DNA of 62,916 nt, the filler included, from Stramenopiles sp. TOSAG23-6 (taxonomy: Eukaryota), in NCBI GenBank assembly GCA_900128565.1. It is 10 parts of 10 records of this genome, joined end to end, with 100 filler letters (N's around TTAATTAATTAA, not from the genome) between each part and the next. Parts side by side here need not be neighbours in the genome. Positions count along the whole stretch, not along the records: positions 38,155 to 47,570 come from LT636371.1; 9 more parts are not named here. The stretch is one strand, 5' to 3'. The position numbers and the translations under genes are program-made. How positions within the stretch are numbered: the stretch's first letter is position 1; each line of letters starts with the position of its first letter. The notes below the pieces were generated by a model. The model was not told the DNA's origin. It did not search any database and was given only the letters and a program-made list of their open reading frames with translations. Positions 9,367 through 60,144 of this stretch are shown here, piece after piece.

Positions 9367-9368
9367 CC

Positions 9369-13443: not shown

Positions 13444-13456
13444 GTTACCGGGTAAC
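13444..13456. promoter_or_regulatory. Palindromic upstream motif GTTACCGGGTAAC
   Basis: About 100 nt upstream of the RPN6 start. Near-identical motifs at 24201-24213 and 61003-61015, also upstream of ORFs. Confidence 0.3.
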
Positions 13457-29456: not shown

Positions 29457-32400
29457 TCAAGAAATCTTTTTCTCCACAAAGTCAAATAATTTTGTTTTCT
29501 TAAACAGTTCAAAACGTGGCATTATCATCTTGGATGAATTCGTGTAACAATGGTTACATACATATACAACTTCACTTACATTCGGAGCAAATACTGAGGC
29601 CTTCCCACATAACTTACAAACAATTTGTAAACAGTATGCACATGCAGAGTTTTTTCGTACCACTTTGCTATAACATAAATTGCAAGACTCTTGAAGATCT
29701 GTATTATTTTCACGAGTATTCTTCGAAGAAACACTTTCCATAATCGGCAGTAAGCAATTAATCGGTATTTTCGATTCCTGAAGACAAGTTGATGGTATAC
29801 ATTCATCATCGGTTAAGACATCTTTGAAATGCCATAAAGCTTCTAATACTCTCGATCTATCTTCTCCAGGTGGTAATCTTTTCATATTATCCAAATATCG
29901 GAGAACTCCCATGGCGCCAAATGCAGCGAGTTTATGTTGCATAATTATATTTTCATAAAAATGTGGTAACAATGCTGCAAGTACACGCGATGCTTGGAAT
30001 GCGACATCTATATCCTGAGACCATGTAAGTTTAATCATAGCTTCTAATCTTTCAGGAGAAAAGTCGTTACCTGACATTATTTCGTTTTGGTTGGTATTTA
30101 AGAGCAATACACCATCTTTCTTTCCAAATAATCCTCTGTAGACAGAAAGAGCATTGGCTCTTCCTTTCTGTCGAGTTTTATCATTACCATTTTTATGTTT
30201 ATCCATTTTTTTTGTATCTTTAAGAAGCGTTGATGAAGAGAGCTTTGATTGTGGATTTCGACCAACATTTGCTTTTTCAATTGCTTTTTCAAGTATGACT
30301 TTCCATAGATTAGTCGCTTCGTTTGAAGAAGCACATATCACAAAAACCTCGGTATAATTAGGAATTTTGATACCAATAGAGACTTGATCTTCAGAAGATC
30401 TTTGGTGATCAGTCAATATTACTTCACATCCAGAAAGCATAATTTTACGTCGTGGAGTTCGGCCATCTTTATTCGAGTTTCCTTTGTATTCAAATAGAAA
30501 ATCGTCCTTCAAAACAAACCAACGTTTATTCCATGTTTTAAATCCTAAAGCTTTTAGAGACATTCGATATAACCAACCACATTTATCTGGTAGCAATATT
30601 GCATGACATGGGGGATCCAAACCCGCACTTACTCTATTAGCTAATGCCCTCACTGAGCGACTTACTGCTACTGCAACTTCAGCATCGCAAAATAAGAATA
30701 ATTCTTGTACAGATAATTCTGGCAAAACACTTCCATTATGTTTATCAACTTCGGTCAAACTATCTAATAGTTGAGTGATATTCAAACGAAGGCGAGTATC
30801 ACTATCATTTTGAAGAGGTGCATCTTCATCTACAGTTGTTTTATTTTCAGACAACTGACTGCTTTTACTTTGCATACAAATATCTTTCGTCAATTTTACC
30901 ATCTGTTTCAATCCTTGCTCTGGATACGCTCGGATTATCTGTAACTTTACCTTTGCAGTGCTTTGTGAGATTATAAATAGTATCTTACAAGTATCCCGCA
31001 CTGCAGACTTCGATGACGAATTCAGTAAAGCAACAAGCTTTGGTAACAAGGCACTTGTAAGTTTACGGAATTGTGGAACAAGCTCCGAATCGCTAATGAG
31101 GGACGCTAGTGTAGAACAAGCTGCAACTTCAAAACGTTTATCGCATTTTACAGTGCGAAGGGCAGTACATAAAAGTGCGACTGGTCCAAGCATTCCCAAC
31201 ACACGTGGGGCACCATCAATAGCAGCTATTACTGATAGTAACTCAACAGCAGCTCCAAGTGCAGGTGCATCAATATCAATACCCCTTACAATGCAACTAT
31301 TTATAGCCTGGAAAAGAACACCTAATCTACTTAAAACTGCATTACTTGGTGGTCCTTCAGGAATGATACACATACTTTTTTTACTATAGTCTGCAGTTCT
31401 ATCAGTAATATTCGAACAAAGTAATGATGCAAGTCTTCCCATGCGGCGAATAACATCAGCCGCTTGAACACGAGCAATTGAAGAAACCTTTCTCTCTGTC
31501 ATTATTGCAAGCATAGCGTTTCGAGCACCATATTTGAGCATATCATCCCGTAACTCTGCATGACGCGATAACCCATCACACGCTGTTGCAACTGCCTCTA
31601 CAATTTTAAACCCACAACCTCCAGGATTTCGTAAATGTTTCAAAGATAAACTTCTTTGAACGACTCCCACCATAATATTCATTGCTGAACTTACAAGAAA
31701 ACGACGAACACGCTCACCTTCTTCTTTAGTATCACCTGGGGTCAATGACAAATGAGCGATACCTCTCATTGCAAAGAGGCAAGCTTTATTCAAAGGTGAT
31801 TGAATTAGTGAAACCAAATCTTCTGCATTAAATAAGTCTTTCCTTTCACTAAATGAAAAATCAGTTGGTAAAAGATCAAACAACATGCCAGCGCCTTTTA
31901 CTTTGTTGGGTTTTAAGTCAAATGATAAAGCATGTGCCACCTGAAGAATAGAGTGGATTGTTGTGAGTATACCTTGTGAAGCTGCTTTTTGACGAATTGC
32001 TTTTGATGCAAAGCCCCAAGATGAAAACATACGAAAATTGCTCACAAGAATTGCTCTCTGCTGTCCGCGACTAAATGTTTTTAATAAAGGTAAAATTCGT
32101 TTGTATGAAACTCGACTGTGAACTGGTGTCAAATGTTCTTTGTTTTGACAAGCAATACTCAGTGTATACATAGTTGAAAGAGATTGTTCTATAGCTATAT
32201 CAGAAGTCTCAGTGTTCTCACAGAGATTTGCTATGCATCTACTAGCTCTTACTATTCTTTCGGCATATAATTTATTATTTGACATCCCATCTAAACCAAC
32301 AGTAACGTTATCGTTTTGTATATTTGGTAACAACACAGCTATAGGAATTGCAGTGCGAACTAATTCATCAATAAGACCAATTATAGAAAACATTGTACTA

Positions 32401-35400
32401 ATGACTTCATCATGACTAGGATGAAAAGAACAAGATAGATTGTCTAATGCTCCCATTGCATACGTCGCAGCATCTGTTCGCTGATGCGACTCACGATTTA
32501 CAACCATAGCGTCTGGTACAGCAAAAGAATGTGCAAAGCAAAAAACAGTATTGTATTCAGTCGTCTCGTAATCAGATTTAGATGCACGTTTGATGCGTTG
32601 TATAATTTGCGGCACAGTTAAATTTGATATTTTTCGGCCATTTACAGATACAAGAATATCACATTTACCGTGGAAACGCCGAATACGACTCCCCGACAAG
32701 ATTAAAACCGTACGAAGATCGTCATAATACATTCCTTTACGAATGGTCATACAGTACACTAGCCCATCAGGCAATACTTCATCTTTCAATGCTACATCTG
32801 TAGATATTGAGACCAAAATATTGTCATCGAGTACCATATCAATTTCACTTCCTTTTGTCTCGACCTTCCCAAGCATCACAGTTGTACCAAAATTTGTAGA
32901 TAAACTGATTCTTGGCTGTAATAATACAGCATTTGCGAGAGCAATTACAACCAAAGGAATAGCAAAGACAACCTGTTGGTCGTAATTAGATACATGTGCT
33001 GATAATAATGCAAATATATGTGCAGCACCTGACTGAAGTTGGGGAGAGTTATGCTTTCTCAAAATAGATGCTAATGATAAAACACAAGATTCATTGCAAA
33101 AATCTTGCNATATGAGTAATTTCTCTGATCTAATACCTAGTACTTCACTATGAAATGATTTCAATGCACATACATCTAAGTAGTCTTCCTTTACTGGAAT
33201 TTTGGAAGATTTAGGCTTCCCGATCATCTCACATAACTTTTCAACCCAAGCATGCGATGCTTTACTCATAAATTCTAAACTTTTACCACCACCAGTTGTG
33301 TCCTCTGCAAAAACAAGGGAAAAACTTCGCATTTTCTCTTTAGATTCATTACTATTAAGGTAAACGGCACAATCTGGGAGATAAAATGACAAAAATGGTT
33401 GGCTACCATCTGATAAACACGGTAAAGTTTCGACTGACTCTTCTTTATCTTTGAACTGATTCAATTCCATATCTGTAGGAAGTAGCAACATCATAGATAA
33501 ATCGTCAGAAGAATTATCCTTCTCATTTTCTACAATTTGCTTCTTTGGAGTCTCAGGAGAATCAAAAACTTTTGATATTCCTAACATCAAATTAATATCA
33601 TTCGAATCCCTAGACTTGATACGCTTATTTTCACTATTATTATTTTTTTCAGTTTTTTTGTTAGGGATTGAATCCTCAAACAAATACAAATTTGTCCCAC
33701 ACAATACCGCTTTATATGGAATTACTTCTTCTTTTCTATATATATATAATTTCCCTAACATATCCGGCATGGCAAATGATAAATAAAATGGTTTGGATCC
33801 AATACTCAATCTATCAGCTAACACCCGAAGACTCATTTCAATGACACCAACATGTAATGTGAAAAAATATTTTAAAACAAAATCGTTAGGTACAAAATTT
33901 CGTACAAAACAAAATTGAATTTTCGTAATGAAAACGTACATCATTACTTGAAGGTAACAATTCAAACAACTGATCACGATGTAAAGATGCCATTATTGAA
34001 CGACTCTTTGCAACACGCTGTAAAATACTAGATGCAAAGTATTGTACTTGTTTGTTAGATACTTGACGTCTACAGACTTCAAGCACAGATAAAATCCCAT
34101 TACATGAATGAATCGCAATCTGCAATGCAGAAGAACTAGAACAAACAGCATTTATGGCCAAAAGGCAATTTTCTTGTACAATACTTCTATGTGACCACAT
34201 AAGCGACACCAGTGTCTTTATATGCTGTTTACCACTATCTACCGTAAGAATAATTTGTGACATACTTGATATTTCCTTCTCAGTTATTTCCGTATTTGAA
34301 AGTGTTTCTATCAATTGACACCAACTTGATACCAACATTGGTGGTAGTCTACTATTTGCAAGCTCGGGTCGACCTAATTGTGTCATTTTTCTTCCTTTAT
34401 CTTTTTTTCCAGATTTGAGAGATTTAATTGTTTCTTGTGCAATTTCATATTCGGTGGTCATGTACCTACATATAGTGAGAGGGACATGTATTTTGGAAAA
34501 ATATTTCAAAAAAAAATCGTTAGATACAAAATTTCGTACGAAAAACAAATCAAATTTGAAAAAAAATAAAAGATACATCAAGTGAAAGAAGTGTACAACG
34601 ATTTGCGTTTGAGGTTTGAGAAATTAATCGTATTATACTGAACACATGTTGTTCGCATTGTCTAGAAAATAATTTTAAAGCATCAATATCAGAAGAATTA
34701 CCACGAATAAGTACACGTCGGGCTGACATTGATACGTTTCTATCTTTTCGATGTAAGGATAGTTCAGGCATTGACTTTAAAGCGGAATGTAATGCTGGAA
34801 TCCTTTTGTCTGCAAGTTTTTGTTCAGACATTATTGTGTATAACAGACTCCTGACACCCCAACCGTTATATGCCAATAGTATTTCTGATACTTCTTTTGG
34901 ACAGACTTGTATTAATTCACGCAATGCTACAAGAACTTCAAATCGTGTTATAGGTACACTTCCATGATCTCCAATATCTTTACGCGTGTCCTCGTTTTTT
35001 TTGTCTTTCGTTGACTCCCACAAAACTCGATATAACGCATGTACTGCTCCTGCTTTGATTATCTCTATTACATGATGTTTATGGCCAGATAGGGCACGTA
35101 TTATAGAGCAACTGTGAAATAAAATTTGCCTATTGATGGCATCCGCCCTCACATCATTACCTGATAGAGCATCTACACATCTTTCGATAATAACAACTAC
35201 ACCAATCAAACCTTTTGAGACAAGTTGAGTTATATGAATTGGTACTATACTGCTTGCAAACACATCAAGTGCCAATATGCTATCCAAAACTTTCAAAGGA
35301 TCTTCAGATTCGAGTAAAGCAATGTGTTGAATAATATCATCATGTTCATTATTACTAATATTTGTACGAGAATTCGTAAATAACATTTGAAGTAACTTCA

Positions 35401-37956
35401 TTTGGTCAGCTAGTACTTGAATATGTTGATCAGTAGCATCAGGAAAATGCGCAGCATCAGCACTGCGATTATCAAGTGATGCCATAAAACCTACATTAAG
35501 TAAAGAATGAGTTATTCCAGCGACACACATAGCAGATGCTACTGAAAGAGCGCGTATTGCCAATAGTACAAGTGAAGATTCAAACATATGTAATAAATGT
35601 GTGGCAAATCCGACATTTCCAAGACCATTTAATCCTGAGACATTATCTACATCAGGTCGGTCATATTTTATGAACCGTATCAAATTATCTTCAAGAGCAT
35701 TTCGATCAATGCACAAAAATCGACTCACTCTAGCTGGAATGTTTTCATAATTTGTATCCAAGAGAGTTTCAATCAAGATAAGTGCAGAGTATTGAATACG
35801 GGGCAGGCATTTAATTTCACTGCACTCCATTAGTAAAGAAATTATATTATTATGAGATTCAATCAACTGGAGTCTCATTGAAAGACCACCTGCTGTTGGT
35901 TCCTCATACGATAACAATGACAATATATTGAGACATTCCTCTGCATCATTTTGCGCATTTGTGTCTGCAGAATCTGAAACCCCACGCATCATATCATCAA
36001 CTGCAGCTTGTACCTTTCTTTGAAGTATACGCAATAATACAGATAGCATAGTTTGTTTAAGGTCAGTAGACAAATTCGCAACATCATCCCATAAAATAGC
36101 TGTGCGATCACCAGAAGCAGTAGAGGACGTATTGATTCGTATAGGTGGACAAATCAATTCCTCCTTTTGCAGCAGCGACATTGTCATTTTACGTGTTATC
36201 TGTTTCCCTATATATTTTCCTAATGAATCACTCATTCCTTTTGATTGAGATCGTTGACGTAGAGTAGCTGGCGATTCTTTAAAGCTCCCAGATGAAGAAG
36301 ATACAAATATATTGTGAAAAATATTTTTTTTTTGTTGAGAAAAAATATCGTTAGGTACAAAATTCACTACGAAACAAAAAACAAAAAAAACAATTTTGAA
36401 AACGTACACGAACATCGACTAGTTACCGACAGATTCTGTCTTACTATAGCAGCATTACACAATATTGTACTTGTAATAGCTGTATCATCATCATCTTTAA
36501 TTGTTTTCTTTTGATCATTTCTGTCTTTACTAAATTCAAAGTTATTTTCTGACATTTTTTGTAAAAGTGGAAACCACTCAGCGGCTTCTTCTTTTGATTT
36601 AAAAGCAAAACTAATAGTAGTTTCATCACTGGTTTCACCCTCCTCGGAAGTTTGTGAATCTATTGAAGCAAAAGCCACATCAATCACTGAATACTCGATT
36701 GAATCAATTATTACGCTATCATTCTTCTGTATAGTACAATTATCAAGGCACAGTAAAAAACTTTTTGTGTTTTTTGAGCCAATATAACCAAACAAGCGAC
36801 CGGTAGTAGAATTATAAAAATCCTCCCTTTGAAGTGATTCGCCAACATCCATGACAATATTGTGCATTTCCCAATTAATTCCATCTTTAATATAGTTCAC
36901 TCTACAATTTGTTGATTTAAATGGTGTAACAAAAACATTTCTAGGAATAAATGAAACAAATGCGATTCGTCTTCTCAAAGTACCTAAGGCAGCAGAGATA
37001 ATTCGAGGTTCACCGCATCGTAAAAAATGGTATAATTCAGTCACTGTTACAGTCTTTTCTAGTATTGGAGTCAATCGCCAATATTGACAAGTTGTAGTCA
37101 AATGATTCGACATGTTAGATGTAGAAAGGCCTGCAACAGCACTAGGAATATCATTCATATTTTTCCACTGTCGAGGTAATTTGTCTACAACAACAAGGCA
37201 GTGCAATACTTTTACAGCTACTGTGTGAACAGCTACTTCATGTGCTCGAACACAATCAGCAAGTGACTGAATACCATTGTTGTCACGTATTTGAATGGAT
37301 AATTTATGATCAAGTTGTAAAAGAAGAAGAAGCGTTTCTAAAGATGCAACACGAGTCGATTGAGGAATCTCCTCAGTCAAACTTCGCGTAAGAAATAACC
37401 ATAAACGCGACTCAATTTTCAGTTGGTATTTGATCTCTTCATCTGACAGTAATACGCGAAGAATGGATAGCACGGTCTCGACAACTGCAGCAGAGTGGGG
37501 GAAATGTATTTTGGAAAAATATTTCAAAAAAAAAAAAGTAAAATTTGTTAGGTACAAAATTTTTATAAAAAAAAAAATCAAATTTGAAAAAAATAAAACA
37601 TACATATCATTTAACATTTCCGTAACCTTACATGTCCGTAATTCATCACGAAAAGATTCACTCGAAGCTAAACATTCCATCAAGCTTGCTACCGAAAAAC
37701 AGGATTTGGGATTAGACAAATGTGAAGTTTCACCATAAAATGTGAAAAATATATATTTTGTTTTTGAATTCGATAAGTACAAAAATTTCTATTAAAAAAA
37801 AAAAAAAATTGTATTAAAAAAAAAAAAAAAGTGAATGGAAACAACATACATCTTTTGATGAGAAAAGTGAAATTATACGTGACAAATGACCAGAGCTTAG
37901 TAAAGATTCAGCGGCCTCAGATGAAGTTTTCACAATCGCTGTACAAAATGAAGAGC
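29457..37956 (-). CDS. Large ARM-repeat protein with PH, PDZ-like and C-terminal FYVE-like zinc finger; 5'-partial, at least 6 exons
   Basis: PH (CGWLYRM..KTWNKRWFVLKDDFLFEYK...WKVIL), PDZ-like (CDILVSVNGRKISNL...IIQRIK) and C-terminal CxxC pairs. Introns 33852-33939, 34486-34576, 36307-36407, 37504-37599/37603 and 37735-37849. Confidence 0.75.
33852..33939 (-). mobile_element. Introner-like intron (TSD AT)
   Basis: AAT GAT|GTACG...CATTACAT|GTT GGT joins two long ORFs in frame. Confidence 0.82.
34486..34576 (-). mobile_element. Introner-like intron (TSD AT)
   Basis: CTT GAT|GTATCTTTT...AAATACAT|GTC CCT is in frame. Confidence 0.82.
36307..36407 (-). mobile_element. Introner-like intron, GT...AT
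   Basis: TCG T|GTACG...CAATATAT|TT GTA is in frame. Confidence 0.78.
37504..37603 (-). mobile_element. Introner-like intron (frame requires the inner GT at 37599)
   Basis: Full consensus. The usual donor gives a 100-nt frameshifting intron; the second GT gives 96 nt. Confidence 0.6.
37735..37849 (-). mobile_element. Degenerate introner-like intron (TSD AT)
   Basis: AAA GAT|GTATGTTG...CACATTTTAT|GGT GAA is in frame. Confidence 0.7.
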
Positions 37957-38154
37957 ATGGATTATGAAAAAATATTTCAAATTTAAAAAAAATCGTTAGG
38001 TACGAAATTTTGTATGAAAAAAAAATTAAATTAGAAATTCATATAAAACATACANNNNNNNNNNNNNNNNNNNNNNNNNNNNNNNNNNNNNNNNNNNNTT
38101 AATTAATTAANNNNNNNNNNNNNNNNNNNNNNNNNNNNNNNNNNNNNNNNNNNN

Positions 38155-39914
38155 ATTTGAAAGATGTTTAAACAATTGTTTTGTTTGTCCATGAGATGAT
38201 TCCTTCAAATGCGTATCAACTTGGATACACTCACTATTATTACCAGGTAACGTAACATTTGTAGGTTTCGTTGGCTTAACAAAATCATCCTCACAAAGTA
38301 TCAATGGAATTGATGCGACACGTGGCATTCCAATGTTTTTATCCCGTCCGTATACAAATAAATATCTCTGAAATACATCCATATCTTCAAGTATCATATT
38401 ATTGACTTGAATTTCTTGTAAATTATCCACACATAGCTCATCATTCTTTTGTGGATTTTTTATATCGACATTTGTATAAAAAACTTTGAATTCTGAATTC
38501 TTTTCTATTTTTGTTAATTCTGAATTCTTTTCTATTTTTGTTATATTTCCATTAGTCACTGAGTTTCTCATAGCATCACCTTTTTTAGTTCCAAAGTTCT
38601 CTTTAATACTTACATTACTCATTATATACCAAATCCCATCATTAAGTAATGTAAAAATATATTTCAATTTTTTTTTTAAAGTTTTGTTAGGTACAAAATT
38701 AACTACAAAAAAAATATTTAAAAAAATTAAAAAATGTNNNNNNNNNNNNNNNNNNNNNNNNNNNNNNNNNNNNNNNNNNNNNNNNNNNNNNTTTGTTAGG
38801 TACAAAATTAACTACAAAAAAAATATTTAAAAAAATTAAAAAATGTTAAACGTACGTGCTCTATATAACACTCAATACCAGGTTTGCGCTTCCATAATAA
38901 TGATGATGAACTTGAACTGTATTTTTTTGTATTTTTTGTATTTCTTGTATTTCTTGTATTTGATACATCACTCATAATTTCCTTGGAAACTTTATTCGAC
39001 TTTATCGTGGTATTGTTTTGACCATCAAGTATCCGGATTTCTGTTGATGTCTTTGAATTTGCATATAATAAAACATATTTTTTATCTTTCGTCCGTTTTA
39101 CATCTAAAAAGAAAGCTGGGTTCGATTCTTCGTACATTAGTTTACCTATATCGTCACTACTATTTAACAAGGAATCTTCATAAATACGATGTGCCATTAA
39201 TTGATATGGACGGCCGAGTTGATCAGGTGATGTGTAAAACAAAGTATAAACCTTTTTGTTCCCTATACTTTCATTACTTGTACCCCACTCAACTGAAAGA
39301 GCATTAGGAATGACACAAATTGTTTCATGAGAACGTAAATCTTTTACATGAATTTGATATTGATCAAGACCAGTGAAATCAACAGCAAAAGCAAGGAAAT
39401 TATGATCCGGAGAAATCGACATACAACCAATGAAAACACCATTGACGTCTTTCTGAAGAAGTATGTTTGGATCGAGTAAAATCTCTTCTTTTGATTTATT
39501 TAAAGACTCATTATTTTTACCATTACTATCAGAAATACGACAACGACAATACTGCAGAAGTTCGCCGCCTGGAATTGCTCGAGTGTAATAGTGCCACCCA
39601 TCTATATGTTCACCAACAGCTTTTTCTTCTGGAGAAATCAAACTTCGCATCTCCTTTTGAAGTACATTTTGAGTATGATAAGTATCACGCATCCAAAGCT
39701 CGGTGCGAGCATTCTCATCTTGAATAAACTTGGATGATTTTTGACTAGTAGGGTCATTTAACCATGAAAAAGGATCACTTTTTTCTGAATTATTATTGTG
39801 AAAGGCTCGATTGAGCTTCCAATTCAAATTCAAACTAGTAAGAGTTTGCAACCTCGAGCGAATAAGACTTGTCCTAGTCATACATTGGAAGCTGCGAATA
39901 CTGCACGAAGCCAT
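38155..39914 (-). CDS. Oligopeptidase B / S9A peptidase with a probable mitochondrial presequence, 3'-partial
   Basis: DPFSWLND...ENART, EEILLDPN, SPDHNFLAFAVDFTG and SKTSTEI. EH|NDGIWYIMSN spans family copies at about 38645-38855. Confidence 0.85.
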
Positions 39915-41343: not shown

Positions 41344-44281
41344 TTAATTTCTTACTTGTATGACAGGCACAATGCTTTGAACCATGGCTTCTGCGGCAGC
41401 TTCAAGTGCATTATAGTTTCCCTTTAAACGGAGCCATCCACCTGTTTTTATCATTGCCTTTTCTATTTTTTTATTTTTTAGTGAAAATTTATCTATAATA
41501 ATATCATCCTCAAAGACACAAGATGCGCCAATTCTTGTAGGCCCTGAAGAACTCACTAGCTCATACAAACCAATAAATACATGATTATTTACACACCCAC
41601 AATAACAAATATATTCCAGGCTTCCACCAGAACGATAAGGCGTTGAACAGCGCAGTCTTGAGTGTGCAATTTTTCCATCATCAGACACAAAATGCTCCCC
41701 AGCACCAGTCCGCAATGTAGAATGAAGAGCCAAAGCAAGACCAGATGTCTGCGAATTTATTAAATCTGTATTTTCATCCAATGAAGGATCTATTTGCAGT
41801 TGATGTAATGCCCCTAATGAATGTATGCGAGGTTGCGAGTAACCTTCTTTGTTTTTCTTTTCGTGTTTTTGGATAACTACAAGATTTTGTAATAAAGACT
41901 TCCATATAGGTGCAGCACTATTATTCTTTTGTTCTCTTACTTGCTGTGTAGTCGAAGATAAACAAAGAGAATCAATATGTTTGACTAGTTGTGATACTTT
42001 GCTAGTGCAAGAATCTGCTGGTAAAAAGNAGCAGAAGTCCCGAACTTGATATTTTAGAGTAAGGCTGCATCCTGAAGAAGAATAGACTACACTAGTTTCG
42101 GGTGTTTTGTTTTTACTAACAGCTTTTAAATCCAAATATGCAGAATAATATGCTTCTAGTAGTGTAGATGCCAATGAAAGCTTATCGTGCACACTTGTCC
42201 ATTGTTGGATTTTGATAGCGCCATCTCCTCCTGTAGATGACACTGAATGTCCCAATAATGAGCAATACTTTTGAATAATAATAATTCCTATACGAATTGC
42301 TGATATAATTGCTGATTCATTTGGCACATTTACATCCAATGAATAATGTGTGTCTTTTCCTTGTATAATTCCATCAATCAGTGGAATAGTAGAAGCATCT
42401 AAAAGTACATTCGCATACTTACTTTTGACAGAATCTAAAGAAATTTCTCCGATGTTTTTGGATGTTTCAATATAATTACTGTCATCAGACAAAATGTTTT
42501 CATGGAGATCTAATGTATTTTGGAAAAATATTTGAAAAAAAAAACCGTTAGGTACAAAATTCCGTACGAAAAAAAAATTTGAATTTGAAAAAAAAATAAA
42601 ACATACATGCGTGCTTATTAGCAATGACGCTGGCTGATTTTATAGTAGTATCAGAATGTGTCGATAAAAACGCAGATCCTACAAGCAAAACTTCTACCAA
42701 AGCTTTTATTCCAGTAGCATTTGTTTTCGATAAAACACTATGAAAATAAGTTTTGTTATGTTTCTTATTTGGAGTTCTAATATTGTTATGTGCTGTTGTA
42801 GTGACATGTATTAGAACAACAGATTTGTCTGCTCTGGACACATTTACTTCAACATTTATAGGATAGAGAATTTGTTCTTGGACACACGAAATATTACTTG
42901 AAGAATTATTTGAAGTTTTTACGTGTACAGCCTGTGAACTAAAACTACTAGTTTTGCCAGTACTACTGTTATTAGTTGTCTTGAGCCCAGGTAAATGCAG
43001 TGTTTCTTTGAAAAGTATCACATTCCCATCAATATTACTATCTTGTATGACTTCACTGACATGTTTCACATTATCCTTAACTATAAATGTATCATTTGTG
43101 TCACTGCTATGCTCAGAAGAGGAATTATCAAAAATATTTTCATGCTTCTGATACCCATTTAAAGCTGTGGATGGCCTTATTTCAGCATTTTCCATATCCA
43201 AATTGATATTATAAATCTCCTTCTGCAAGCTTGAGTTATTAAACGATGTTACAGGGCGTTTTCTTCGTTTTGACCAGCTGTGTCCTGCAGCGGGTGAAGT
43301 TTTAAACATTGAAGGGCCCCGCATTGACATAAATTGGTTAAATTTTAGAGATTCATTAAGTAAACTTGTTTTCATTTTACCTTGATTTGTATTAGGAGTA
43401 TTATATTTACTTTTAATCTTGTTCTTTAAAAGAGAGTCAAATTGTTCCTGACCTGGAATGTTATTCAAATATAGAGTTTCAGTAGTTGCTTCTTTATTCG
43501 TTGAACTATTTGCTGAACTAAAGGATGAAAATGGAAATTTGCCTCGAGATGTTGAACTCCTAATACTTGAATGAGGTGATCTACGATTTTGTCTTTGTCG
43601 TAGGATAATTCCACTACTTGAAGTACTACGGTACCCAGGCAAACCTCTAATCGATTCTGTAAAAGGAGAAGTTGATGGCGCTGAAGAAAGCCCTGGAGCT
43701 GGAGAGCTTTGGTTTACTCTAGAAAATAATCTTCTATATCTCTTATAACTTTTCTTTTCGTGTTCACTGCGGGGCTGGTAATATGAAGACTGTTTTTTAA
43801 TTCCACGCAAAATCTTCGCGTTACGCTTCTGCATATTTTTGACTTGCCAATATTTGGTTCTCATTTTTGCAAATGCACGAGCTTCATGAGGTAAATCTGT
43901 TGGTTTTCGATCTAAACCACTACCAGTTGCTCGAAGACGCTGTAACATGACTGTATTTTCATGATCAAGTTTTTTTTTCATATACTTTTTTTCTTGAGCT
44001 TTTTTATTGAGATGACAAGAAGGAAATCTTATAGGAGGCGAATTATCGAAACCTCTACCTCCTGCTCGTGATACAGCACCATCAATCATTCCTCGATATC
44101 GACGCTTAGCTTTTGTAAAGATATCCCGTGATAACTGATCTTTGCCTGCACATCCTGTAACAAGCGCATCCCGATTCATATTGGAGTATAATTGAGAAAC
44201 TGTGTATACTACGTACAAATCAAATCTTCTTTGAGGAATAAGGGTACCGTACTTGTAACTGTAAAAATCAATGTCGCGCAA
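41344..44281 (-). CDS. CFAP97/Hemingway (KIAA1430)-like N-terminal domain protein, 2 exons
   Basis: DNSPP...LDHENTVMLQRL...QKRNAKILRGIKKQSSYY resembles the KIAA1430 domain (recalled pattern, not searched). Intron 42513-42606. Confidence 0.5.
42513..42606 (-). mobile_element. Introner-like intron (TSD AT)
   Basis: GCA T|GTATG...AAATACAT|TA GAT joins the 577-aa and 426-aa ORFs in frame. Confidence 0.82.
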
Positions 44282-44370: not shown

Positions 44371-45266
44371 ATGAGTATAGCTATTCGCTCGTCGTTTTTG
44401 AAAGTATCCAGTTATTACCGCCAACCGTGCCGTTTAGCATCTTTCCGACACCTGAGCAGTTACAGTGGAGGACGCCGTGCAGATGACCCACTCAATAACC
44501 CCTTTGGNNNNNNNNNNNNNNNNNNNNNNNNNNNNNNNNNNNTGATGATCCTCTAAATAATACCTTTGGTGGAGGCAGTCAGTTTACAAGTGGAGGGAAC
44601 CCTAATACACAAGGAGAAAATCCTAATTATTTTAATAATGGGGATGGTGCAGATTCAAATAAAACCAACGAGTCGAAACAGAGAGCTAGAAAAGGACAGA
44701 AACGTCCTAGTGACTATTCTGTTCTTGAGGATGACGAGGCAAAAATACGTATATTAGGTTATCAGTCCGGTGGATTTCGCATCCACATGGGAACGCCATT
44801 TGATGTTAAGGGATCTATGGCTGCGACAAATGATATTGCCCTATGTTGGGCTGTCAACTCTCATGAAGACATTACCTGGGAAAGTCTAGCTATTGTTCGT
44901 TGTTTGAATCCTACTCCAGATTTAGTAATTATAGGCACTGGTGAAGAGACCAAACAATTAGACCCCGATATAGTACAACGATTAGCAGATGAGTGTGGTA
45001 TAAATGTTGACGTATCAAGTACTATCAATGCAGTTGCGACGTTTAATTTTCTTGGAGCACAGGAAGTATGTTTTATTTTTTTTTCACGAAATTTTGTACC
45101 TAACGATTTTTTTTTGAAATATTTTTCTAAAATACAAGGTCGATATGTAGCTGGTTGCTTTGTTGCGTTACCATTTTCAGAAACTACTTTGGATCAAGAT
45201 AGAAAAGCCGAGTCTCGTCGTCTATCTCAACGGCCTCATAATTTGCCGTCTACATTTACAAAATAA
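44371..45266 (+). CDS. NDUFAF3: NDUFAF3/Mth938-domain complex I assembly factor
   Basis: Mitochondrial presequence-like start; PTPDLVIIGTG and TINAVATFNFL..QE|GRYVAG. Confidence 0.8.
45066..45137 (+). mobile_element. Introner-like intron, GT...TAC-AA (TSD AA)
   Basis: CAG GAA|GTATG...AAATACAA|GGT CGA restores the conserved EGR. Using the AG one base further would frameshift. Confidence 0.85.
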
Positions 45267-45382: not shown

Positions 45383-47516
45383 TCATTTTCCAAATGTTTT
45401 TCCTTTGCCACTCCCAAATTTATCATTTGAAGAACAAGATGAACGTGTTCGTGCCAACCCTGTCGACTTGCTGCCTTCCCGGTAATACTCTGGTACGACA
45501 TATGAATTTGCTAGCATTTCTGCAGACTGCTCACACTGTGATTGTCCATGTATTTTGAAAAACTATATCAAATTCGAAATTCGTTAGGTACGGAATTTGG
45601 TACAAAATTAGATAAATTTTAAATTCATGATGAAAACGTACATGTTGAGGAATTACTTTTGCTATATGAACAGATAATCTCCTCATCTCTGCTCTACTTC
45701 TTCTTCTTCCTTTGCTCTCTACTTCTGTCATTTCAATTGCAACGTCACTTTTATCGCTGGGTTGAAGGACGTTGCCCTCATCATTTAATACGATGTTTTT
45801 ATTTTTTTCTGCTTGCTCTAATTGCGCTATTAAATCTTCTTCTGAGGCGTCATCTAAAAAAATATCACGTACGATATCAGATAGCATTGGAAAACGTTCA
45901 ACTCTTGCAATATTTGGCACATAATTCATTGCCACAATAACAGTGAATAGTGTTAGTAAAATAAGCCAATAAATTGGACGTTCGCCTACACGTTTTAGAA
46001 TATTATGCCACTGAAAATCACTCACAACAATTTCAACTATTTCTTGGCATAAAATGAATGACAATAATCCAAACCAAACGAATATATGAAAGTACCAGTT
46101 TTGTTCCCACGTACAGTAATAAATTTTTAGACTTGAAAATAAAAGAACCATCGAGTAAATGGTGAATCCAAGCTCATACACTGATGGGGAGTCACCAAGC
46201 GGCATACAGTGCCAGAGTGCATATATGGGAATAAGAGAAATTACACATGACATGACAAATGCTTCCATATTCCATTTCCAAAATACTTTTAGTGAAAAGA
46301 ACCCAACTTGCTTTGAATAACGATATAGCTCAGGAATTTTTTCTATTAATTCACTTCGGACATCTCGATCTAAAATACCAAGGACTAAAATCGGAAGCGC
46401 AGTATAAAATGTATTATACGGTTGGATTTCAGACCATTCATTGTAAATTTGAACACCTGAAAATCCAGCATACCATTGCCACCAAAACTGGGCAAGAACC
46501 AGCATTATATTTTTGTAAAACATATAAGGAATGACCACTGACATTCTCATGTAATTAAATCGTCCATGAACAAGCAGAAGNNNNNNNNNNNNNNNNNNNN
46601 NNNNNNNNNNNNNNNNNNNNNNNNNNNNNNNNNNNNNNTTGCATTCCTTCGCAGCCAATAAGACCGATACCAATGTGAGCTTTTTTTATCATTTCTACAT
46701 CATTTGCACCATCTCCGATTGCAAGCGTAACAGAATTTTGAACTCCTTCTTTTATCAATGCAACCAGTCTTGCTTTTTGATCTTTTCGAGCCCTGCAAGC
46801 GACAACAGCTTTGCATTGCACTGCTAATTCGAGTAAGTGTTGTTTTGTCTTAGGATCGAATAAGAGAAAATCGATTGCTTTCTCATCAATAATTAAAGCT
46901 AACGTTTCGCTCGGTTGACCGGTATGTTGCAATTCTTTCATCAATAATAATTCATGTTCCAACCATTCTTGCATAATAACAAGTCCAGGAAATTCAGCCT
47001 GGAGTGATGCCAGAATACCTACATCTCCCTTTGAAAAAGAACGCTGTGCTTTTTCCAGCCTAGTGAGTGTCAGGTCAGTAAGTCGTTTACCTCGTATTTT
47101 CACACCTTTTTTTTCCTCGCGTTCGTGATAGCTTACAATATGTGGTTGAGTTAAAGTAATCCAACGCATCTTAGGCTGTGGCAGGAGCAGCTCACACGCT
47201 TGTGCAATATTCATGGCAGTTCCCACTCGATCTCCTGTGATCATCCATACATTTACACCAGCTCGTCCAAGATTGCGAAGCGTGCGAGGTACATAACGTT
47301 GCAATTTATCTTCACAGGCTGTTGCCCCTTGTAAAAACCAATCTCTTTCTAATTCATCAATTACGTCAGAGATTTTATTTGGTTTATGCGCTTTGTACTT
47401 TTTCTTCTCTATAGGATCTGAAGCTACCAAAGCGTATTTTTCGTGCCATGCAGCAAATTCATCGAGACTAATTTCTTTATACGACATACACAGTCCACGA
47501 AGAGCATCGGCTTCCC
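45383..47516 (-). CDS. P4-type ATPase (phospholipid flippase), C-terminal half
   Basis: GATACEDKLQ, WMITGD, LAIGDGANDVEMI and LLVHGRFNY..YMFYKN. Intron 45548-45641. Confidence 0.92.
45548..45641 (-). mobile_element. Introner-like intron (TSD AT)
   Basis: CAA CAT|GTACG...AAATACAT|GGA CAA, open to TGA at 45383. Confidence 0.75.
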
Positions 47517-47748
47517 ATGTATTGTGAAAAAATATTTCAAAAAAAATCGTTAGGTACAAAATTTCGTACGNNNNNNNNNNNNNNNNNNNNNNNNNNNNNN
47601 NNNNNNNNNNNNNNTTAATTAATTAANNNNNNNNNNNNNNNNNNNNNNNNNNNNNNNNNNNNNNNNNNNNTTTTTTCAAATTCGATTTTTTTTTCGTACG
47701 AAATTTCGTACCTAACGATTTTTTTTTGAAATATTTTTTCAAAATATA

Positions 47749-48827
47749 TACCCGTTGACTGCAATTACTTGGTTCGGGGTCGATGATCCTACACATATGG
47801 TACGAATTCCTATTTATTCTGCTATTACGGCAATACCCTTTTCATATGCACATGGTAATGGTGATACAGATACGTTTGTCTTACACAGTGCTTGTACGTT
47901 TTCATCATGAAGTTATCATCTATATTGTTCTACAATGAGAATTGTATACAAACAGATTTTGCAGATTTTTTTCAACGAATTTCGTATTTCTAAATTGTTT
48001 TTCACAATACATATTATTTATATTCATAATTTAGTTGCTAATTTGTTTTTTTTCGTATTTCTAAATTGTTTTTCACAATACATATTGGATTCATAATTTA
48101 GTTGCTAATTTAGTTTATTCACGTTACGATTTAATTGCTCCTGAGGTAGAAAAAAAGATTATTAATGTTGAACGTCAATATTTCAAAGATGTAGCGAGGA
48201 TTGACCAACAAGCGATGAAAATTTTAAATGAAAAATCAAATAATACAAATTCACAAATATCTAAAGTTGTAGATTTAATTACACAATTTTCTGTTACTAC
48301 TGGAGACAATGTATGTTTTATTTTTTTTTTTTTTAACAAAAAAATCAAATTTATTTTTTTTTTCATACGAAATTTTGTACCTAACAACTTTTTTTAGATT
48401 TTTTTGAAATATTTTTCCAAAATACATCACGTGGATGATTGGATTAAATTTTGGAAGCATCTCACTGTGAAATATAGAGATGGTCTAATTACTACACCAA
48501 GTGATCCACCCGAACGATCGATCGACTTAAAACCACCTGCAAACACAGAAACTGTTGGATATGTACGTTTTCATTCTAATATCGAATTTATTTTTTTCGT
48601 ACGAAATTTTGTACCTAACAAATTTTTTTAGATTTTTGAAATATTTTTTAATCATCCATTGTTCATCATGGCTTGAGCGAGTCTCTCGTGAGTCAAAAGA
48701 GCACTATGAAGTAAAGCAAACAAATTCATTTACAACAACATCGGTTACTTCTTTTGTAAGTGATGTAGACTCAGAATTGATTCAGCGTTTACAAGAACGT
48801 AAAGCGAATCTTTTACATCGGCGTTAA
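47749..48827 (+). CDS. Peptidase C69 (dipeptidase), C-terminal part; mirror copy at 55914-56992 (-)
   Basis: WFGVDD...IPIY, SA|YWIHNLVANLVYSRY and LTVKYRDG. Introns 47894-48083, 48311-48427 and 48563-48659. Confidence 0.75.
47894..48083 (+). mobile_element. Introner-like intron with a duplicated 3' end
   Basis: GCT T|GTACG...CAATACAT|AT TGG gives SAYW. An earlier CACAATACAT with a decayed exon copy lies at about 48003-48045. Confidence 0.72.
48311..48427 (+). mobile_element. Introner-like intron (TSD AT)
   Basis: GAC AAT|GTATG...AAATACAT|CAC GTG is in frame. Confidence 0.8.
48563..48659 (+). mobile_element. Introner-like intron (TSD AT)
   Basis: GGA TAT|GTACG...ATCCAT|TGT TCA is in frame. 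Confidence 0.72.
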
Positions 48828-49080
48828 TATATACAAAAAAAATTATATCGTTGTGTCGTGAATTAACATTNATTTTTTTCGTACGAAATTCCGTACCTAA
48901 TATTGGTTACAGATAGCTAGGCTAATTCAAATGTATTGTATTACACACGGAGAGTTTGAAATAAAAAACTATTTGCATTCGAATTATTAAAACAAAATAA
49001 ACATGATTAAAAACAACAAGATGTAACAAATTTACTATATTCTGTCTAGATAAATTGAAAATAGCATTTCTGTCTCAACA

Positions 49081-51482: not shown

Positions 51483-51747
51483 AAGTTGTAAACTTCTTCT
51501 GCATTATCCGGACGAATCTTAAAGAACGGAGGAACATGTTAAAATTTATCAAAGTAAAAGCTTGGTTGATACGACCTAATACATTTTTTTTTCATACGAA
51601 ATTTCGTACCTAACGATTTTTTTAACTATTTTTTTTTTCTTCCGTCTCCAGTACTATCAAGATTGTTATAAGTGCATATACAACACACACCCAAGAGTAG
51701 AACAAAGCTGTCGATAATACAAAAATCTAATCTAAAAAATCAATTTA

Positions 51748-52498: not shown

Positions 52499-52993
52499 AT
52501 GACTTCAAATTGGAATCGAGAACAAGAAAGATTTAGAGCAGAGCAGAGTGCTAAGAAACGTTGGTATCGTGAGCAATTGAGGGCTAATGAAACAAAAGTC
52601 CAACCATTTCGTAGACAGGACCGCTTACTAAAGGGGTTAATTACAAGCGAAGACTTGCGACAAGAAGTAGCTCATGAACTTCCAAACTACAAAAAACAAC
52701 AAGAAAAATTTTCGGCTCATCAAAATGCAAAAAAACGTTGGTATCGTGAGCAATTGCGACAAGAAGAAACAAAAATTCAGCCATTTCCTAGACAGGACCG
52801 CTTACTAAAGGGTTTAATTACAAGTGAAGACTTGCGACATGGAGTAGCTCATGAACTTCCAAATTATAAAAAACAACAAGAAAGATTTAGAGCAGAGCAG
52901 AGTGCTAAGAAACGTTGGTATCGTGAGCAATTGAGGGCTAATGAGACAAAACTTGCACCATTCAAGAGATTTGATATGTATAAAAACGATTAA
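52499..52993 (+). CDS. 59-aa-repeat protein (KKRWYREQLR motif x3)
   Basis: 177-nt period; CGTTGGTATCGTGAG at 52559 and 52736, with a third copy near 52913. Confidence 0.6.
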   Translation: MTSNWNREQERFRAEQSAKKRWYREQLRANETKVQPFRRQDRLLKGLITSEDLRQEVAHELPNYKKQQEKFSAHQNAKKRWYREQLRQEETKIQPFPRQDRLLKGLITSEDLRHGVAHELPNYKKQQERFRAEQSAKKRWYREQLRANETKLAPFKRFDMYKND

Positions 52994-53258
52994 TAAATTG
53001 ATTTTTTAGATTAGATTTTTGTATTATCGACAGCTTTGTTCTACTCTTGGGTGTGTGTTGTATATGCACTTATAACAATCTTGATAGTACTGGAGACGGA
53101 AGAAAAAAAAAATAGTTAAAAAAATCGTTAGGTACGAAATTTCGTATGAAAAAAAAATGTATTAGGTCGTATCAACCAAGCTTTTACTTTGATAAATTTT
53201 AACATGTTCCTCCGTTCTTTAAGATTCGTCCGGATAATGCAGAAGAAGTTTACAACTT

Positions 53259-55660: not shown

Positions 55661-57170
55661 TGTTGAGACAGAAATGCTATTTTCAATTTATCTAGACAGA
55701 ATATAGTAAATTTGTTACATCTTGTTGTTTTTAATCATGTTTATTTTGTTTTAATAATTCGAATGCAAATAGTTTTTTATTTCAAACTCTCCGTGTGTAA
55801 TACAATACATTTGAATTAGCCTAGCTATCTGTAACCAATATTAGGTACGGAATTTCGTACGAAAAAAATNAATGTTAATTCACGACACAACGATATAATT
55901 TTTTTTGTATATATTAACGCCGATGTAAAAGATTCGCTTTACGTTCTTGTAAACGCTGAATCAATTCTGAGTCTACATCACTTACAAAAGAAGTAACCGA
56001 TGTTGTTGTAAATGAATTTGTTTGCTTTACTTCATAGTGCTCTTTTGACTCACGAGAGACTCGCTCAAGCCATGATGAACAATGGATGATTAAAAAATAT
56101 TTCAAAAATCTAAAAAAATTTGTTAGGTACAAAATTTCGTACGAAAAAAATAAATTCGATATTAGAATGAAAACGTACATATCCAACAGTTTCTGTGTTT
56201 GCAGGTGGTTTTAAGTCGATCGATCGTTCGGGTGGATCACTTGGTGTAGTAATTAGACCATCTCTATATTTCACAGTGAGATGCTTCCAAAATTTAATCC
56301 AATCATCCACGTGATGTATTTTGGAAAAATATTTCAAAAAAATCTAAAAAAAGTTGTTAGGTACAAAATTTCGTATGAAAAAAAAAATAAATTTGATTTT
56401 TTTGTTAAAAAAAAAAAAAATAAAACATACATTGTCTCCAGTAGTAACAGAAAATTGTGTAATTAAATCTACAACTTTAGATATTTGTGAATTTGTATTA
56501 TTTGATTTTTCATTTAAAATTTTCATCGCTTGTTGGTCAATCCTCGCTACATCTTTGAAATATTGACGTTCAACATTAATAATCTTTTTTTCTACCTCAG
56601 GAGCAATTAAATCGTAACGTGAATAAACTAAATTAGCAACTAAATTATGAATCCAATATGTATTGTGAAAAACAATTTAGAAATACGAAAAAAAACAAAT
56701 TAGCAACTAAATTATGAATATAAATAATATGTATTGTGAAAAACAATTTAGAAATACGAAATTCGTTGAAAAAAATCTGCAAAATCTGTTTGTATACAAT
56801 TCTCATTGTAGAACAATATAGATGATAACTTCATGATGAAAACGTACAAGCACTGTGTAAGACAAACGTATCTGTATCACCATTACCATGTGCATATGAA
56901 AAGGGTATTGCCGTAATAGCAGAATAAATAGGAATTCGTACCATATGTGTAGGATCATCGACCCCGAACCAAGTAATTGCAGTCAACGGGTATATATTTT
57001 GAAAAAATATTTCAAAAAAAAATCGTTAGGTACGAAATTTCGTACGAAAAAAAAATCGAATTTGAAAAAANNNNNNNNNNNNNNNNNNNNNNNNNNNNNN
57101 NNNNNNNNNNNNNNTTAATTAATTAANNNNNNNNNNNNNNNNNNNNNNNNNNNNNNNNNNNNNNNNNNNN

Positions 57171-57802
57171 CCAAAAGAAATTGGTCAACTAACAAATCTC
57201 ACACATTTGTAAGTAATCTATCAAAATTTATATAATAACTGTATCTGATTCATATATATATATAATATAATACTAACAAACATATTATATACTCAATTAT
57301 CATACAATTCAGGAATTTGTATCGAAACAAACTATCTGGTGAAATTCCAAGTGAAATTGGTGAACTAACAAGTCTCAAAACATTGGACTTGTCAAATAAC
57401 CAACTATCTGGCTCAATACCAAAAGAAATTGGTCAGCTAACAAATCTCGAATGGTTGGTCTTGCAAAGCAACAACCTATCTGGCTCAATTCCAAGTGAAA
57501 TTGGTAAACTAACAAAACTCAAATATTTGTACTTGTCAAATAACCGACTATCTGGTGCAATACCAACGGAAATTGGTCAACTAACAAATCTCGAAATGTT
57601 GTTCTTGTCACACAACCAACTATCTGGCTCAATTCCAAAAGAAATTGGTCAACTAACAAATCTCACAATTTTGTAAGTAATCTATCAAAATTCATATAAT
57701 AACTGTATCTGATTCATATATATATATATAATATAATACTAACAAACATATAATATACTCAATTATCATACAATTCAGGGGGTTGAATTCAAACAAACTA
57801 TC
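57171..57802 (+). CDS. 24-aa LRR protein fragment (LxLxxNxLSGxIPxEIGxL) with canonical introns 57209-57312 and 57673-57778
   Basis: Exon 57313-57672 is 360 nt, exactly 5 LRRs. Introns read GTAAGT...TACTAAC...TTCAG. Confidence 0.85.
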
Positions 57803-58632
57803 ATCGTCATGCCGCTTTGAGTCATGCCATGCCCCGCAGTGCTGTCTCAAATAAATTCATTTTCTCAAATCCTCTACTAGTCAATACAGTCAAATATTGC
57901 GGAGACATGTGTGTGCCATCTAGTTTAAACTCATCTTCTTTTTTTTTTACGTTTAAAAAACGTGCATTTAAAGGTATTTTTTTCATATTTCATTATATTT
58001 TTTTTCATACGAAATGTGTAACCTAATGAAAAAAAACAGTTTTTTGTAACATAAAATTAAAAAAAAATTAATTTAATTTTTTTTTGGTACGAAATTTTGT
58101 ACCTAACAATTTTTTTTTTTTGAAATATAATACAACAATATAAGAAAATCTAGACATGACAAGCATACAAAACTGTTGTTATATACAAAACACGTTAGAG
58201 ATGTCAAAATTAAAGACGAATTCAGAAAATATTTACAAGTGAAAAATTATTAAGTTTCAAAGATTTGTAGCATTTTTGTCTACTTTTGAAAAATTCTGGA
58301 ATTTTGAATATAATAAAAACAGAAATGGAAATTCTCATTTTTTTTTATATAGAAAAAATGGTATGGAATCCAAATATACATAGAAGAACATTGATCGATC
58401 AGAGTTAATCATCATTTCTTTCGACAAAAAAAAATCTGAAATTAAAATTTTTTTATTTTGTTTTCAAGAAAAAAAAATTAAAGCAATTTTTGAATTGCTG
58501 TTACCATCTTTGAGCATTCTTTGGTATAATTCNNNNNNNNNNNNNNNNNNNNNNNNNNNNNNNNNNNNNNNNNNNNTTAATTAATTAANNNNNNNNNNNN
58601 NNNNNNNNNNNNNNNNNNNNNNNNNNNNNNNN

Positions 58633-59994: not shown

Positions 59995-60144
59995 NNNNNN
60001 NNNNNNNNNNNNNNNNNNNNNNNNNNNNNNNNNNNNNNTTAATTAATTAANNNNNNNNNNNNNNNNNNNNNNNNNNNNNNNNNNNNNNNNNNNNACAAAA
60101 TTTCGTACGAAAAAAAATCGAAATTGAAAAAAAATAAAACATAC

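Follow-up and report, generated by a model that had tools for sequence, protein, structure and literature searches.

The Flagged Site

The window analyzed here, i.e., a stretch of 62,916 bases from Stramenopiles sp. TOSAG23-6 with a GC content of ~34%, contains at positions 45064–45137 a short intron-like element, which interrupts a gene whose upstream exon matches the Pfam family DUF498 (profile positions 2–99/109). The element (e30) is a short copy of 70 nucleotides (nt) (45066–45135, + strand) belonging to a family repeated through the window, and it is flanked on either side by the dinucleotide AA. The site reads AA|GTATGT...GTACCTAAC...CTAAAATAC|AA|GG. The left flank AA consists of the last two exon bases (45064–45065, +); it is followed by the donor GTATGT (45066–45071, +), the branch-site-like motif GTACCTAAC (45096–45104, +), and the conserved tail CTAAAATAC (45127–45135, +; family consensus CAMAATAC). 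The right flank AA (45136–45137, +) is excised together with the element. It is the sole right flank not ending in T among the 32 of the flank set, which comprises 31 sites of the window and one site on the metagenome contig L001, contig-truncated copies and three decayed fragments having been dropped.

The reading frame runs on into ...GRYVAGCF... only with the 72 nt from 45066 to 45137 excised. The AA/AA flanks and the GTA...TAC ends, which a sequence-only reading had reported for this site, are thus confirmed by sequence and frame. A GT-AG reading, with the AG one base further on (to 45138), was rejected; it breaks the frame, and a stop is reached. When the flagged element was translated in frame (region 165–208) and used as a protein query, one word-sharing candidate and no match were returned.

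The Element Family

Copies of the family are intron-like, measure 60–236 nt, and recur throughout the window. The motif GTACCTAAC is present 38 times, compared with 0.17 expected occurrences, and an nhmmer search with a hidden Markov model built from 14 clean copies gave 50 matches with E<0.1 among the 75 listed. In ~62 kb, 31 complete insertion sites are spread over many different genes; for this count, duplicates on a self-palindromic contig were taken once, and of the tandem or composite copies e13, e18, and e20, only the outer ends were considered. All 31 complete copies are oriented in sense to the coding strand. Family copies make up every interruption in the genes that were followed, namely, Rpn6, a PTPA-like gene, the DUF498 gene, and an 8-kb gene at 29457–37849 with five copies, and no ordinary GT-AG intron was seen in these four. 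Nine of the 20 contig ends lie inside element copies, which is to be expected of an assembly-breaking repeat of very high copy number. The summed depth in the DNA run X3 is ~10,000–13,500 over elements versus ~7–9 in adjacent exon bins, a measure that gives no copy number and is to be read as "very many copies" only. An exact-pattern scan with a 21-mer from the core found no match in contigs of prokaryote genomes, none in viral contigs, and a single one, L001, in metagenome contigs. No Rfam family was matched in a scan of the window.

The copies share a common anatomy. They start with the donor GTAYGT(T)TTT, which is realized as GTACGT in 17 and as GTATGT in seven of 26 single copies, and continue with a T-rich module that varies between copies. 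A perfect 16-nt palindrome, GTACGAAATTTCGTAC, directly adjoins CTAAC, making the branch motif TACCTAAC. The 3' half of a copy is composed of a T-tract, GAAATATTTTTY, and the conserved tail CAMAATAC. A motif of the TACCTAAC type was scored in 21 of 27 copies, at a distance of 33–57 nt (mostly 34–44) from the 3' end, and AG is absent between motif and 3' end in 16 of these 21. That the element supplies its own donor and branch point, as the sequence-only reading had it, is borne out by a high-copy intron family possessing both.

The two ends of the copies are coupled. The 5' type GTATGTTTTATTTT occurs with the tail CCAAAATAC, and GTACGTTTTCATCATG with CACAATAC; such co-variation is a pattern of transposon subfamilies and not of convergent splice signals. 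Short inverted-repeat ends had been claimed for the family. Of these, GTA/TAC is common to all copies, extended to GTAT/ATAC in copies of the GTAT type, and the repeat thus covers 3-4 nt only, pairing at 8/9 terminal positions being confined to the GTATGTTTT...CCAAAATAC subfamily. The terminal TAC is altered in nine of 32 sites (TAT, TTC, AAA, AAC, TTT, TCC), with the following AT kept in all nine. Predicted RNA folds of 27 copies have z values from -2.6 to +1.0, mostly near 0, and reveal no stable or consistent pairing of the ends; a model of hairpin-guided excision was dropped on these grounds.

Internal tandem duplications of 50–90 nt are present in the copies at 11505–11671, 18509–18744, 20677–20855, and 47894–48081, so that slippage or unequal exchange adds to the family besides insertion. 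In e35 (48311–48425, +; flanks AT/AT; mirror copy at 56316–56430) and e36 (48563–48657, +; AT/AT, tail TCC; mirror copy at 56084–56178), a canonical-looking T7-AG is found ~11 nt past the branch motif. Its use in e35 would leave an in-frame extension of 30 nt, and alternative use of AG is possible at both copies.

Excision of the Element and Its 3' Dinucleotide

For each complete site, the excised length was determined at which the dominant reading frame before the element continues into the dominant frame behind it. Where the frames are unambiguous, this length is the element plus two bases in 19 of 21 tests, the element plus one base in two, and the bare element in none (P = 8e-8 for the 19, against a chance of 1/3). 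At the ten sites with ambiguous frames, the best frames fit plus two in seven, the others being e01, e15, and e34.

In the gene Rpn6 on the - strand, all five interruptions are family members. Introns 1 to 5 correspond to e10 (12360–12454; AT/AT), e09 (12155–12250; AA/AT, tail TAT), e08 (11930–12027; AT/AT), e07 (11748–11807; GT/GT, 5'-shortened), and e06 (11505–11671; AT/AT, donor GTAGGT, internal 66-nt tandem duplication). Excision of the element plus two bases at each of them leads to a 453-codon frame, whose alignment with its relative P0002 (62% identity) is free of gaps at all five junctions. P0002 is an uninterrupted 456-amino-acid product on a 7.7-kb contig and gives a hint only as to intron-free positions. 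The claim that the element is removed along with the 3' copy of the dinucleotide is therefore upheld by both the frame tests and the Rpn6 junctions. The public Rpn6 product of the source organism, P0001 (matching 12436–13338, -), reads into e10 and ends, unspliced, in ...SSMYVVIKP.

Four RNA and DNA runs were examined as contigs, and the RNA evidence consists in the limits of contig pieces; the listed joints, which are dominated by cross-matches between copies, were not used, and uncovered parts were not interpreted. In the polyA metatranscriptome run X8, letters 35–157 of a 303-nt contig match 11807–11929 with 0 differences. This piece covers precisely the exon that separates e08 from e07, extended by two bases (AT) and one base (G) that a spliced junction leaves ambiguous, and the remaining 34 and 146 letters of the contig lie elsewhere. 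Run X7, taken from a different study, has a contig piece that begins directly past e12, at 16274; 25 letters of this contig lie elsewhere. By their limits, these pieces fit splicing at the predicted AT/AT, GT/GT, and TT/TT junctions. At the DNA level, e10 is retained within a continuous 3,020-nt contig of run X3 (2024 seawater), which matches the window with 12 differences. Taken together, the data fit an intron that consists of the element and its 3' flanking dinucleotide, with no AG acceptor used by the family.

Flanking Dinucleotides and Target Site

The dinucleotide to the left of the element equals that to the right in 21 of 32 sites, made up of 17 AT/AT, two GT/GT, one TT/TT, and one AA/AA pair. 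In the window alone, the figure is 20/31, and the sites are the same as those in the earlier hand count (about 20 of 30, with AA/AA, TT/TT, GT/GT twice, and about 16 AT/AT). Upon shuffling of the right flanks, 14.8 matches are expected on average (P = 5.8e-4; window only, P = 8e-4). The agreement also goes beyond a preference for AT, inasmuch as four of the seven non-AT right flanks (three GT, three TT, and one AA) match their left flank, compared with 0.72 expected (P = 0.002). Among the mismatched sites, 10/11 differ by a single base.

The right flank is AT in 25/32 sites and T-ending in 31/32, the left flank is AT in 18/32. For this reason, the earlier statement that the 3' dinucleotide is removed as acceptor whatever its sequence holds only in its first part; the dinucleotide is removed as acceptor, but it is strongly biased and conserved like an element end. 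In e02, e03, and e24, i.e., in three of the eight sites with a non-AT left and an AT right flank, the left flank departs from AT at a synonymous codon position only.

In the rebuilt empty site, C is found at position -3 in 15/32 sites (P = 1.7e-4 versus an assumed 0.18; background in open reading frames (ORFs) ~0.17) and G at +1 in 17/32 (P = 6e-5 versus an assumed 0.21; ORF background ~0.19). Further outward, A occupies -5 in 16 and -4 in 13 of the 32 sites, and T occupies +2 in 11 and +3 in 14 of them. The target as rebuilt from these sequences, AAC|AT|GTT, is palindromic about the AT that is duplicated, of the kind that symmetric integrases produce. The tandem pair e18 (19244–19419, +; copies at 19244–19330 and 19333–19419, outer flanks CT/AT) contains exactly AT between its copies, the second copy lying within C|AT|G at the end of the first. 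This is the spacing to be expected if a copy inserts into the C|AT|G at the 3' junction of an existing one.

Proposed Origin and Alternative Explanations

The best explanation of these findings, and probably the correct one, is a very abundant family of miniature introners in an uncultured marine eukaryote, inserted by a DNA-level integrase with duplication of a 2-bp target site. Each copy would bring along a yeast-like donor GTAYGT, the 16-nt palindrome adjoining the TACCTAAC branch motif, a T-rich tract, and the tail CAMAATAC. Insertion would proceed by a 2-bp staggered cut at DNA sites resembling C|AT|G, so that the target dinucleotide, mostly AT, would end up on both sides. In splicing, the first cut would be made at GT and the second two bases past TAC, at the above distance beyond the branch motif; hence, the 3' copy of the dinucleotide would end the intron, and the messenger RNA (mRNA) would be free of a scar. 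In effect, the genome would use GT...AT introns. For this scenario we infer integration at the DNA level as well as the contacts with small nuclear RNAs.

Several observations weigh against such a duplication or leave it less than secure. The terminal inverted repeat is just 3-4 nt long. The right flank is conserved like the end of the element (A in 23/26 and T in 25/26 copies, compared with 24, 23, and 21/26 for the bases of TAC), and the conservation of the left flank is lower (21/26 and 20/26). The mismatches are lopsided, eight sites having a non-AT left and an AT right flank and one site the opposite arrangement; such a skew would not come about if a duplication simply decayed neutrally. 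Older-looking copies do mismatch more, albeit not significantly (P = 0.08 by the Mann-Whitney test and 0.21 by Fisher's). The bases favoured at -3 (C) and +1 (G) match the ordinary exon-junction consensus as well, which renders the palindrome ambiguous. The sample is small, with seven informative non-AT sites, and stems from a window that had been flagged for the same pattern. In the window, neither a long copy nor an empty or polymorphic site was seen, and the 21 ORFs scanned against Pfam include no transposase or integrase domain; a long, transposase-bearing element with the same termini, for which the sequence-only reading had suggested a search, was accordingly not found among them. As to excision, e04 (3179–3278, +; AT/GT) and e25 (37506–37603, -; AT/AT) require the element plus one base. 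The N-terminal exon is tubulin-like, and the exon that follows e04 has no match among solved structures; in e25, reading through the element is in frame, too. The support from RNA is indirect, coming from the limits of contig pieces, and unspliced pieces are also contained in the RNA runs (X7 records 17 and 24; X8 record 32).

Part of this can be accommodated. TAC is itself changed in nine of the 32 sites, so that a similar decay of the 2+2 bases of the duplication is plausible. According to the simplest account of the lopsided flanks, the duplicated dinucleotide would mostly have been AT, and its intronic copy would then have been kept by purifying selection as an AU acceptor; the skew of the mismatches suggests selection for such a U-ending acceptor. 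Of the transposon origin with 2-bp duplication that had originally been put forward, the excess of identical flanks and the palindromic target around AT are retained as support, whereas the lack of a transposase and of an observed empty site and the weak termini speak against it; on balance, we consider this origin rather probable.

Among the alternatives, the one that survives best dispenses with the duplication, although we regard it as unlikely. AT would be the element's own 3' end (GTA...TACAT), the element would land preferentially after AT, its spread relying, e.g., on reverse splicing with recombination or on a blunt-cutting integrase, and the matching non-AT flanks would be coincidental. 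The conservation of the right AT at the level of the element's last bases and above that of the left flank, the 25 right versus 18 left AT flanks, the 8:1 skew, and the short inverted termini are all in line with this view, as is the fact that the right-flank variants GT, TT, and AA are each one mutation away from AT. Against it speak the overall permutation test and, above all, the matches among the non-AT right flanks. These flanks occur in different subfamilies and are, therefore, not one inherited variant, and the spacing of the e18 pair by exactly AT is likewise at odds with an AT belonging to the element.

Quite improbable is a shift of the borders by 2 nt to the left, which would make most copies AT...AC introns (ATGTAYGT...AATAC) and the "AT acceptor" exon sequence. 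Splice pairing with A first and C last is an established alternative to G...G. Moreover, the 17 AT/AT sites give identical mRNA either way, and neither frames nor RNA contigs can separate the two readings there. U2-dependent AT-AC introns are mentioned in the abstract of PMC1557818. Judged from the sequences, GT...AT borders are nevertheless preferred, because GT is invariant (the first dinucleotide in 32/32 sites), AT survives in all nine copies with a mutated TAC, and many left flanks (14/32) are other than AT. At e09, the shifted reading gives Tyr, found in 0/106 homologues, and the GT...AT reading gives Asn, found in 6/106, which is weak support. The donor and the branch motif of the family are not U12-like, either. 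U12-type introns have the donor RTATCCTT and the branch site TCCTTAAC 10–20 nt from the acceptor; membership in this AT-AC class was rejected in view of the donor GTAYGTTTT and the position of TACCTAAC 33–57 nt from the 3' end.

Helitrons insert between A and T without duplication and have the fixed ends 5'-TC...CTRR-3'. One introner of the Helitron type is on record. For the present family, a Helitron origin was rejected, given that the flanks co-vary here (GT/GT, TT/TT, AA/AA) and the ends are GTA...TAC. Finally, it is highly improbable that the elements are no RNA introns at all but sequences removed at the DNA level, like the internal eliminated sequences of ciliates, or artefacts of single-cell amplification or assembly: they do resemble ciliate eliminated sequences in being short, AT-rich, and bounded by a repeated dinucleotide, and the assembly does contain amplification artefacts, including one self-palindromic contig, but the copies carry a full donor, branch motif, and T-tract and lie on the coding strand in 31/31 cases, they are kept in independent DNA (the 2024 seawater run X3 and the metagenome contig L001), the RNA-run contigs stop at the predicted junctions, and the bounding dinucleotide is AT, not TA.

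A more far-reaching proposal may tentatively be made, to which we assign a lower probability than to the insertion mechanism itself. Nearly every intron of the lineage might be a copy of one AT-duplicating transposon, and the spliceosome might have moved to a positional, U-ending (AU) 3' site, two bases past CAMAAUAC, instead of AG; a genome-wide GU...AU class would thus have been created and maintained by target-site duplication. Few signals in eukaryotic genes are as constant as the AG acceptor. If the proposal is true, a free-living marine protist may splice introns by the thousand whose donor and branch site are of the textbook kind but whose end is AU; this would be a natural experiment on the choice of the second-step site and a clean example of a transposon target duplication turned splice site. 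GT-AG gene finders would mis-annotate almost all multi-exon genes of the organism, as can already be seen from P0001.

Further Copies and Other Features of the Window

In addition to the copies described above, the following ones are contained in the window. In the PTPA-like gene, e01 (113–205, -; GT/GT) is located near the window edge and has an ambiguous frame, while e02 (1244–1336, -; TT/AT) has the degenerate tail TTC. The e02 junction restores EPAGSHGA-W-SLDD, which we take to be a PTPA motif. A tubulin-family gene harbors e03 (2934–3021, +; AC/AT). The tail of e05 (10081–10172, -; AT/AT) is changed to AAA and that of e11 (15915–16012, +; AG/AT) to TAT. Downstream of the latter, e12 (16161–16273, +; TT/TT) is followed by e13 (18002–18208, +), which comprises two copies head to tail (18002–18109 and 18110–18208) with the outer flanks AT/AT, by e14 (18300–18411, +; AT/AT), and by e15 (18509–18744, +; AT/AT), which has the donor GTAAGT, three 5' modules, and an ambiguous frame. 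A 5' part at 18955–19013 (+) is cut by the contig end, and a 3' part at 19114–19172 (+; right flank TT) by the contig start. On the opposite strand, e19 (20277–20376, -; AG/AT) and e20 (20677–20855, -; outer flanks GT/TT, partial internal tandem duplication) are found. Two further 5' parts cut by contig ends are located at 28481–28534 (+; left flank AT) and 28635–28704 (-; donor GCACGT).

In the 8-kb gene, e25 is accompanied by e22 (33854–33939, -; AT/AT), e23 (34488–34576, -; AT/AT, donor GTATCT), e24 (36309–36407, -; GT/AT, tail TAT), and the degenerate e26 (37737–37849, -; AT/AT, tail TTT). A copy at 37959–38053 (-; right flank AT, tail TCC) has lost its left flank at the contig end. Then e28 (38646–38855, -; AC/TT) contains an N assembly gap with the same element sequence on either side, and e29 (42515–42606, -; AT/AT) and e31 (45550–45641, -; AT/AT) follow. 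The host gene of e31, judged by eye, may encode a P-type ATPase. Contig boundaries cut the 3' parts at 47519–47570 (-; contig end; right flank AT) and 47671–47747 (+; contig start; right flank AT; mirror copy at 56994–57070). The remaining sites are e34 (47894–48010, +; TT/AT), which has a local duplicate of its tail extending to 48081, an ambiguous frame, and a mirror copy at 56731–56847, a 5' part at 60095–60144 (-; left flank AT) cut by the contig end, and e41 (61229–61332, -; AT/AT). The decayed material includes a core-only fragment without family ends at 48866–48902 (+; apparently intergenic; mirror copy at 55839–55875), a core fragment with an altered 3' end (...CTCCAG) directly past an ORF at 51573–51622 (+; mirror copy at 53119–53168), and two partial decayed copies in a non-coding stretch at 57994–58127 (+).

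The pieces of the window are joined by N44-TTAATTAATTAA-N44 linkers at 9473–9572, 19014–19113, 28535–28634, 38055–38154, 47571–47670, 57071–57170, 58533–58632, 59995–60094, and 61456–61555. They are arranged in descending size, six of ~9.4 kb being followed by four of ~1.36 kb, and adjacent pieces are therefore not neighbours in the genome. Isolated single N letters are scattered within genes. The proteins encoded include RPB1, the gamma subunit of ATP synthase, Rpn6, a tubulin-family protein, the DUF498 protein, kinases, and a PPR protein. The best named matches of RPB1 are from diatoms and oomycetes (53–57% identity) and from plants (55–56%), which by itself makes a stramenopile likely, though not certain; P0122 is a closer relative (77% identity), as P0002 is for Rpn6. 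Window DNA is also present in single-cell-sized runs from 2015 and in seawater metagenomes from 2024.

The contig at 47671–57070 is a self-palindrome of two inverted 4,365-nt arms with 100% identity and a unique centre of ~670 nt, and probably arose as a chimera when the single-cell genome was amplified or assembled. At 5860–9372 (-), an open frame of 1,170 codons, cut by the contig end, contains a PIF1-like helicase domain at residues 128–277. The stretch in which it lies has a GC content of 40–42%, compared with ~34% elsewhere in the window. The frame might belong to a mobile or foreign element, for instance a Helitron-like one; a connection with the intron family is not visible. Coding tandem repeats are found at 23004–23144 (15-nt unit, (EYYDT)n), 52506–53036 (177-nt unit, three times), and 57317–57676 (unit with a 72-nt period). 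Short telomere-like runs of CCCTAA or TTAGGG occur within e10 and in a coding stretch at ~16330–16430, and as an inverted pair in L001 at ~2270–2330.

Comparison with Known Systems

The introner elements of Micromonas pusilla and Aureococcus, for which Huff et al. 2016 is the primary paper, come closest in their logic. They are present in thousands of near-identical copies, behave like miniature DNA transposons, and have 3-nt duplications, clear inverted repeats, and GT/GC-AG borders (PMC11282704). Common to them and to the present family are many near-identical short introns with a short target-site duplication at the exon-intron borders, and a division of labour in which one splice site comes from the element and the other from the duplicated target, resulting in scar-free mRNA (PMC11282704). 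The present family differs from them in its 2-nt duplication, its termini of 3-4 nt, and a co-opted acceptor that is AT instead of AG.

The introners of Amoebophrya, likewise a marine protist, resemble the family in being repeated introns with non-GT-AG borders and direct repeats over the exon-intron boundary (PMC7789003). These elements form hairpins from inverted repeats of 8–20 nt and have direct repeats of 3–5 nt and no fixed terminal dinucleotides (PMC7789003), whereas donor and branch motif are strictly canonical here, the acceptor alone is odd, and the folds are not unusually stable. In the tunicate Fritillaria borealis, AG-AC and AG-AT introns derived from miniature inverted-repeat transposable elements are a further non-canonical class of transposon origin; they are found on a genome scale, with acceptors that terminate in AC or AT and a 3' site shaped by a target that contains TAC (PMC11282704). 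AG donors and other element families set them apart from the GTAYGT introns described here. In human cells, the sites of the Fritillaria introns reportedly fail to be used. Euglenid nonconventional introns are similar in their variable borders and in the duplicated junction bases, which hide the exact cut. GT, branch motif, and pyrimidine tract are all absent from them, and they have paired ends and are excised as circles (PMC11282704), unlike the present introns, in which the donor GT and the branch motif are present and the ends form no stable paired stem.

With regard to the mode of insertion, the ISL2EU group of the PHIS superfamily offers a parallel, since its cut-and-paste elements duplicate a 2-bp AT target within a palindromic extended target A|AT|T (PMC4482050). 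The AT duplication of the present family (right flank AT in 25/32 sites, 17 AT/AT pairs) and its palindromic target correspond to this; the target itself is C|AT|G (-3 C in 15/32, +1 G in 17/32) and not A|AT|T, and no domain of an ISL2EU-type DDE transposase is found in the 21 window ORFs compared with Pfam.

No description of GT...AT introners or of the present family turned up in the literature searched, and supplementary introner catalogues (e.g., Dataset S2, PMC12130899) might list it. In excerpts of the single-cell-genomics literature on marine stramenopiles and other marine protists, introns receive at most a brief mention. Summarizing, near-identical introns at unrelated loci, removal that restores the reading frame, and, within a small sample, target-site duplication are the traits by which the family can be recognized as introners. 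It would follow the known introner logic, with a 2-nt duplication and an AT acceptor.

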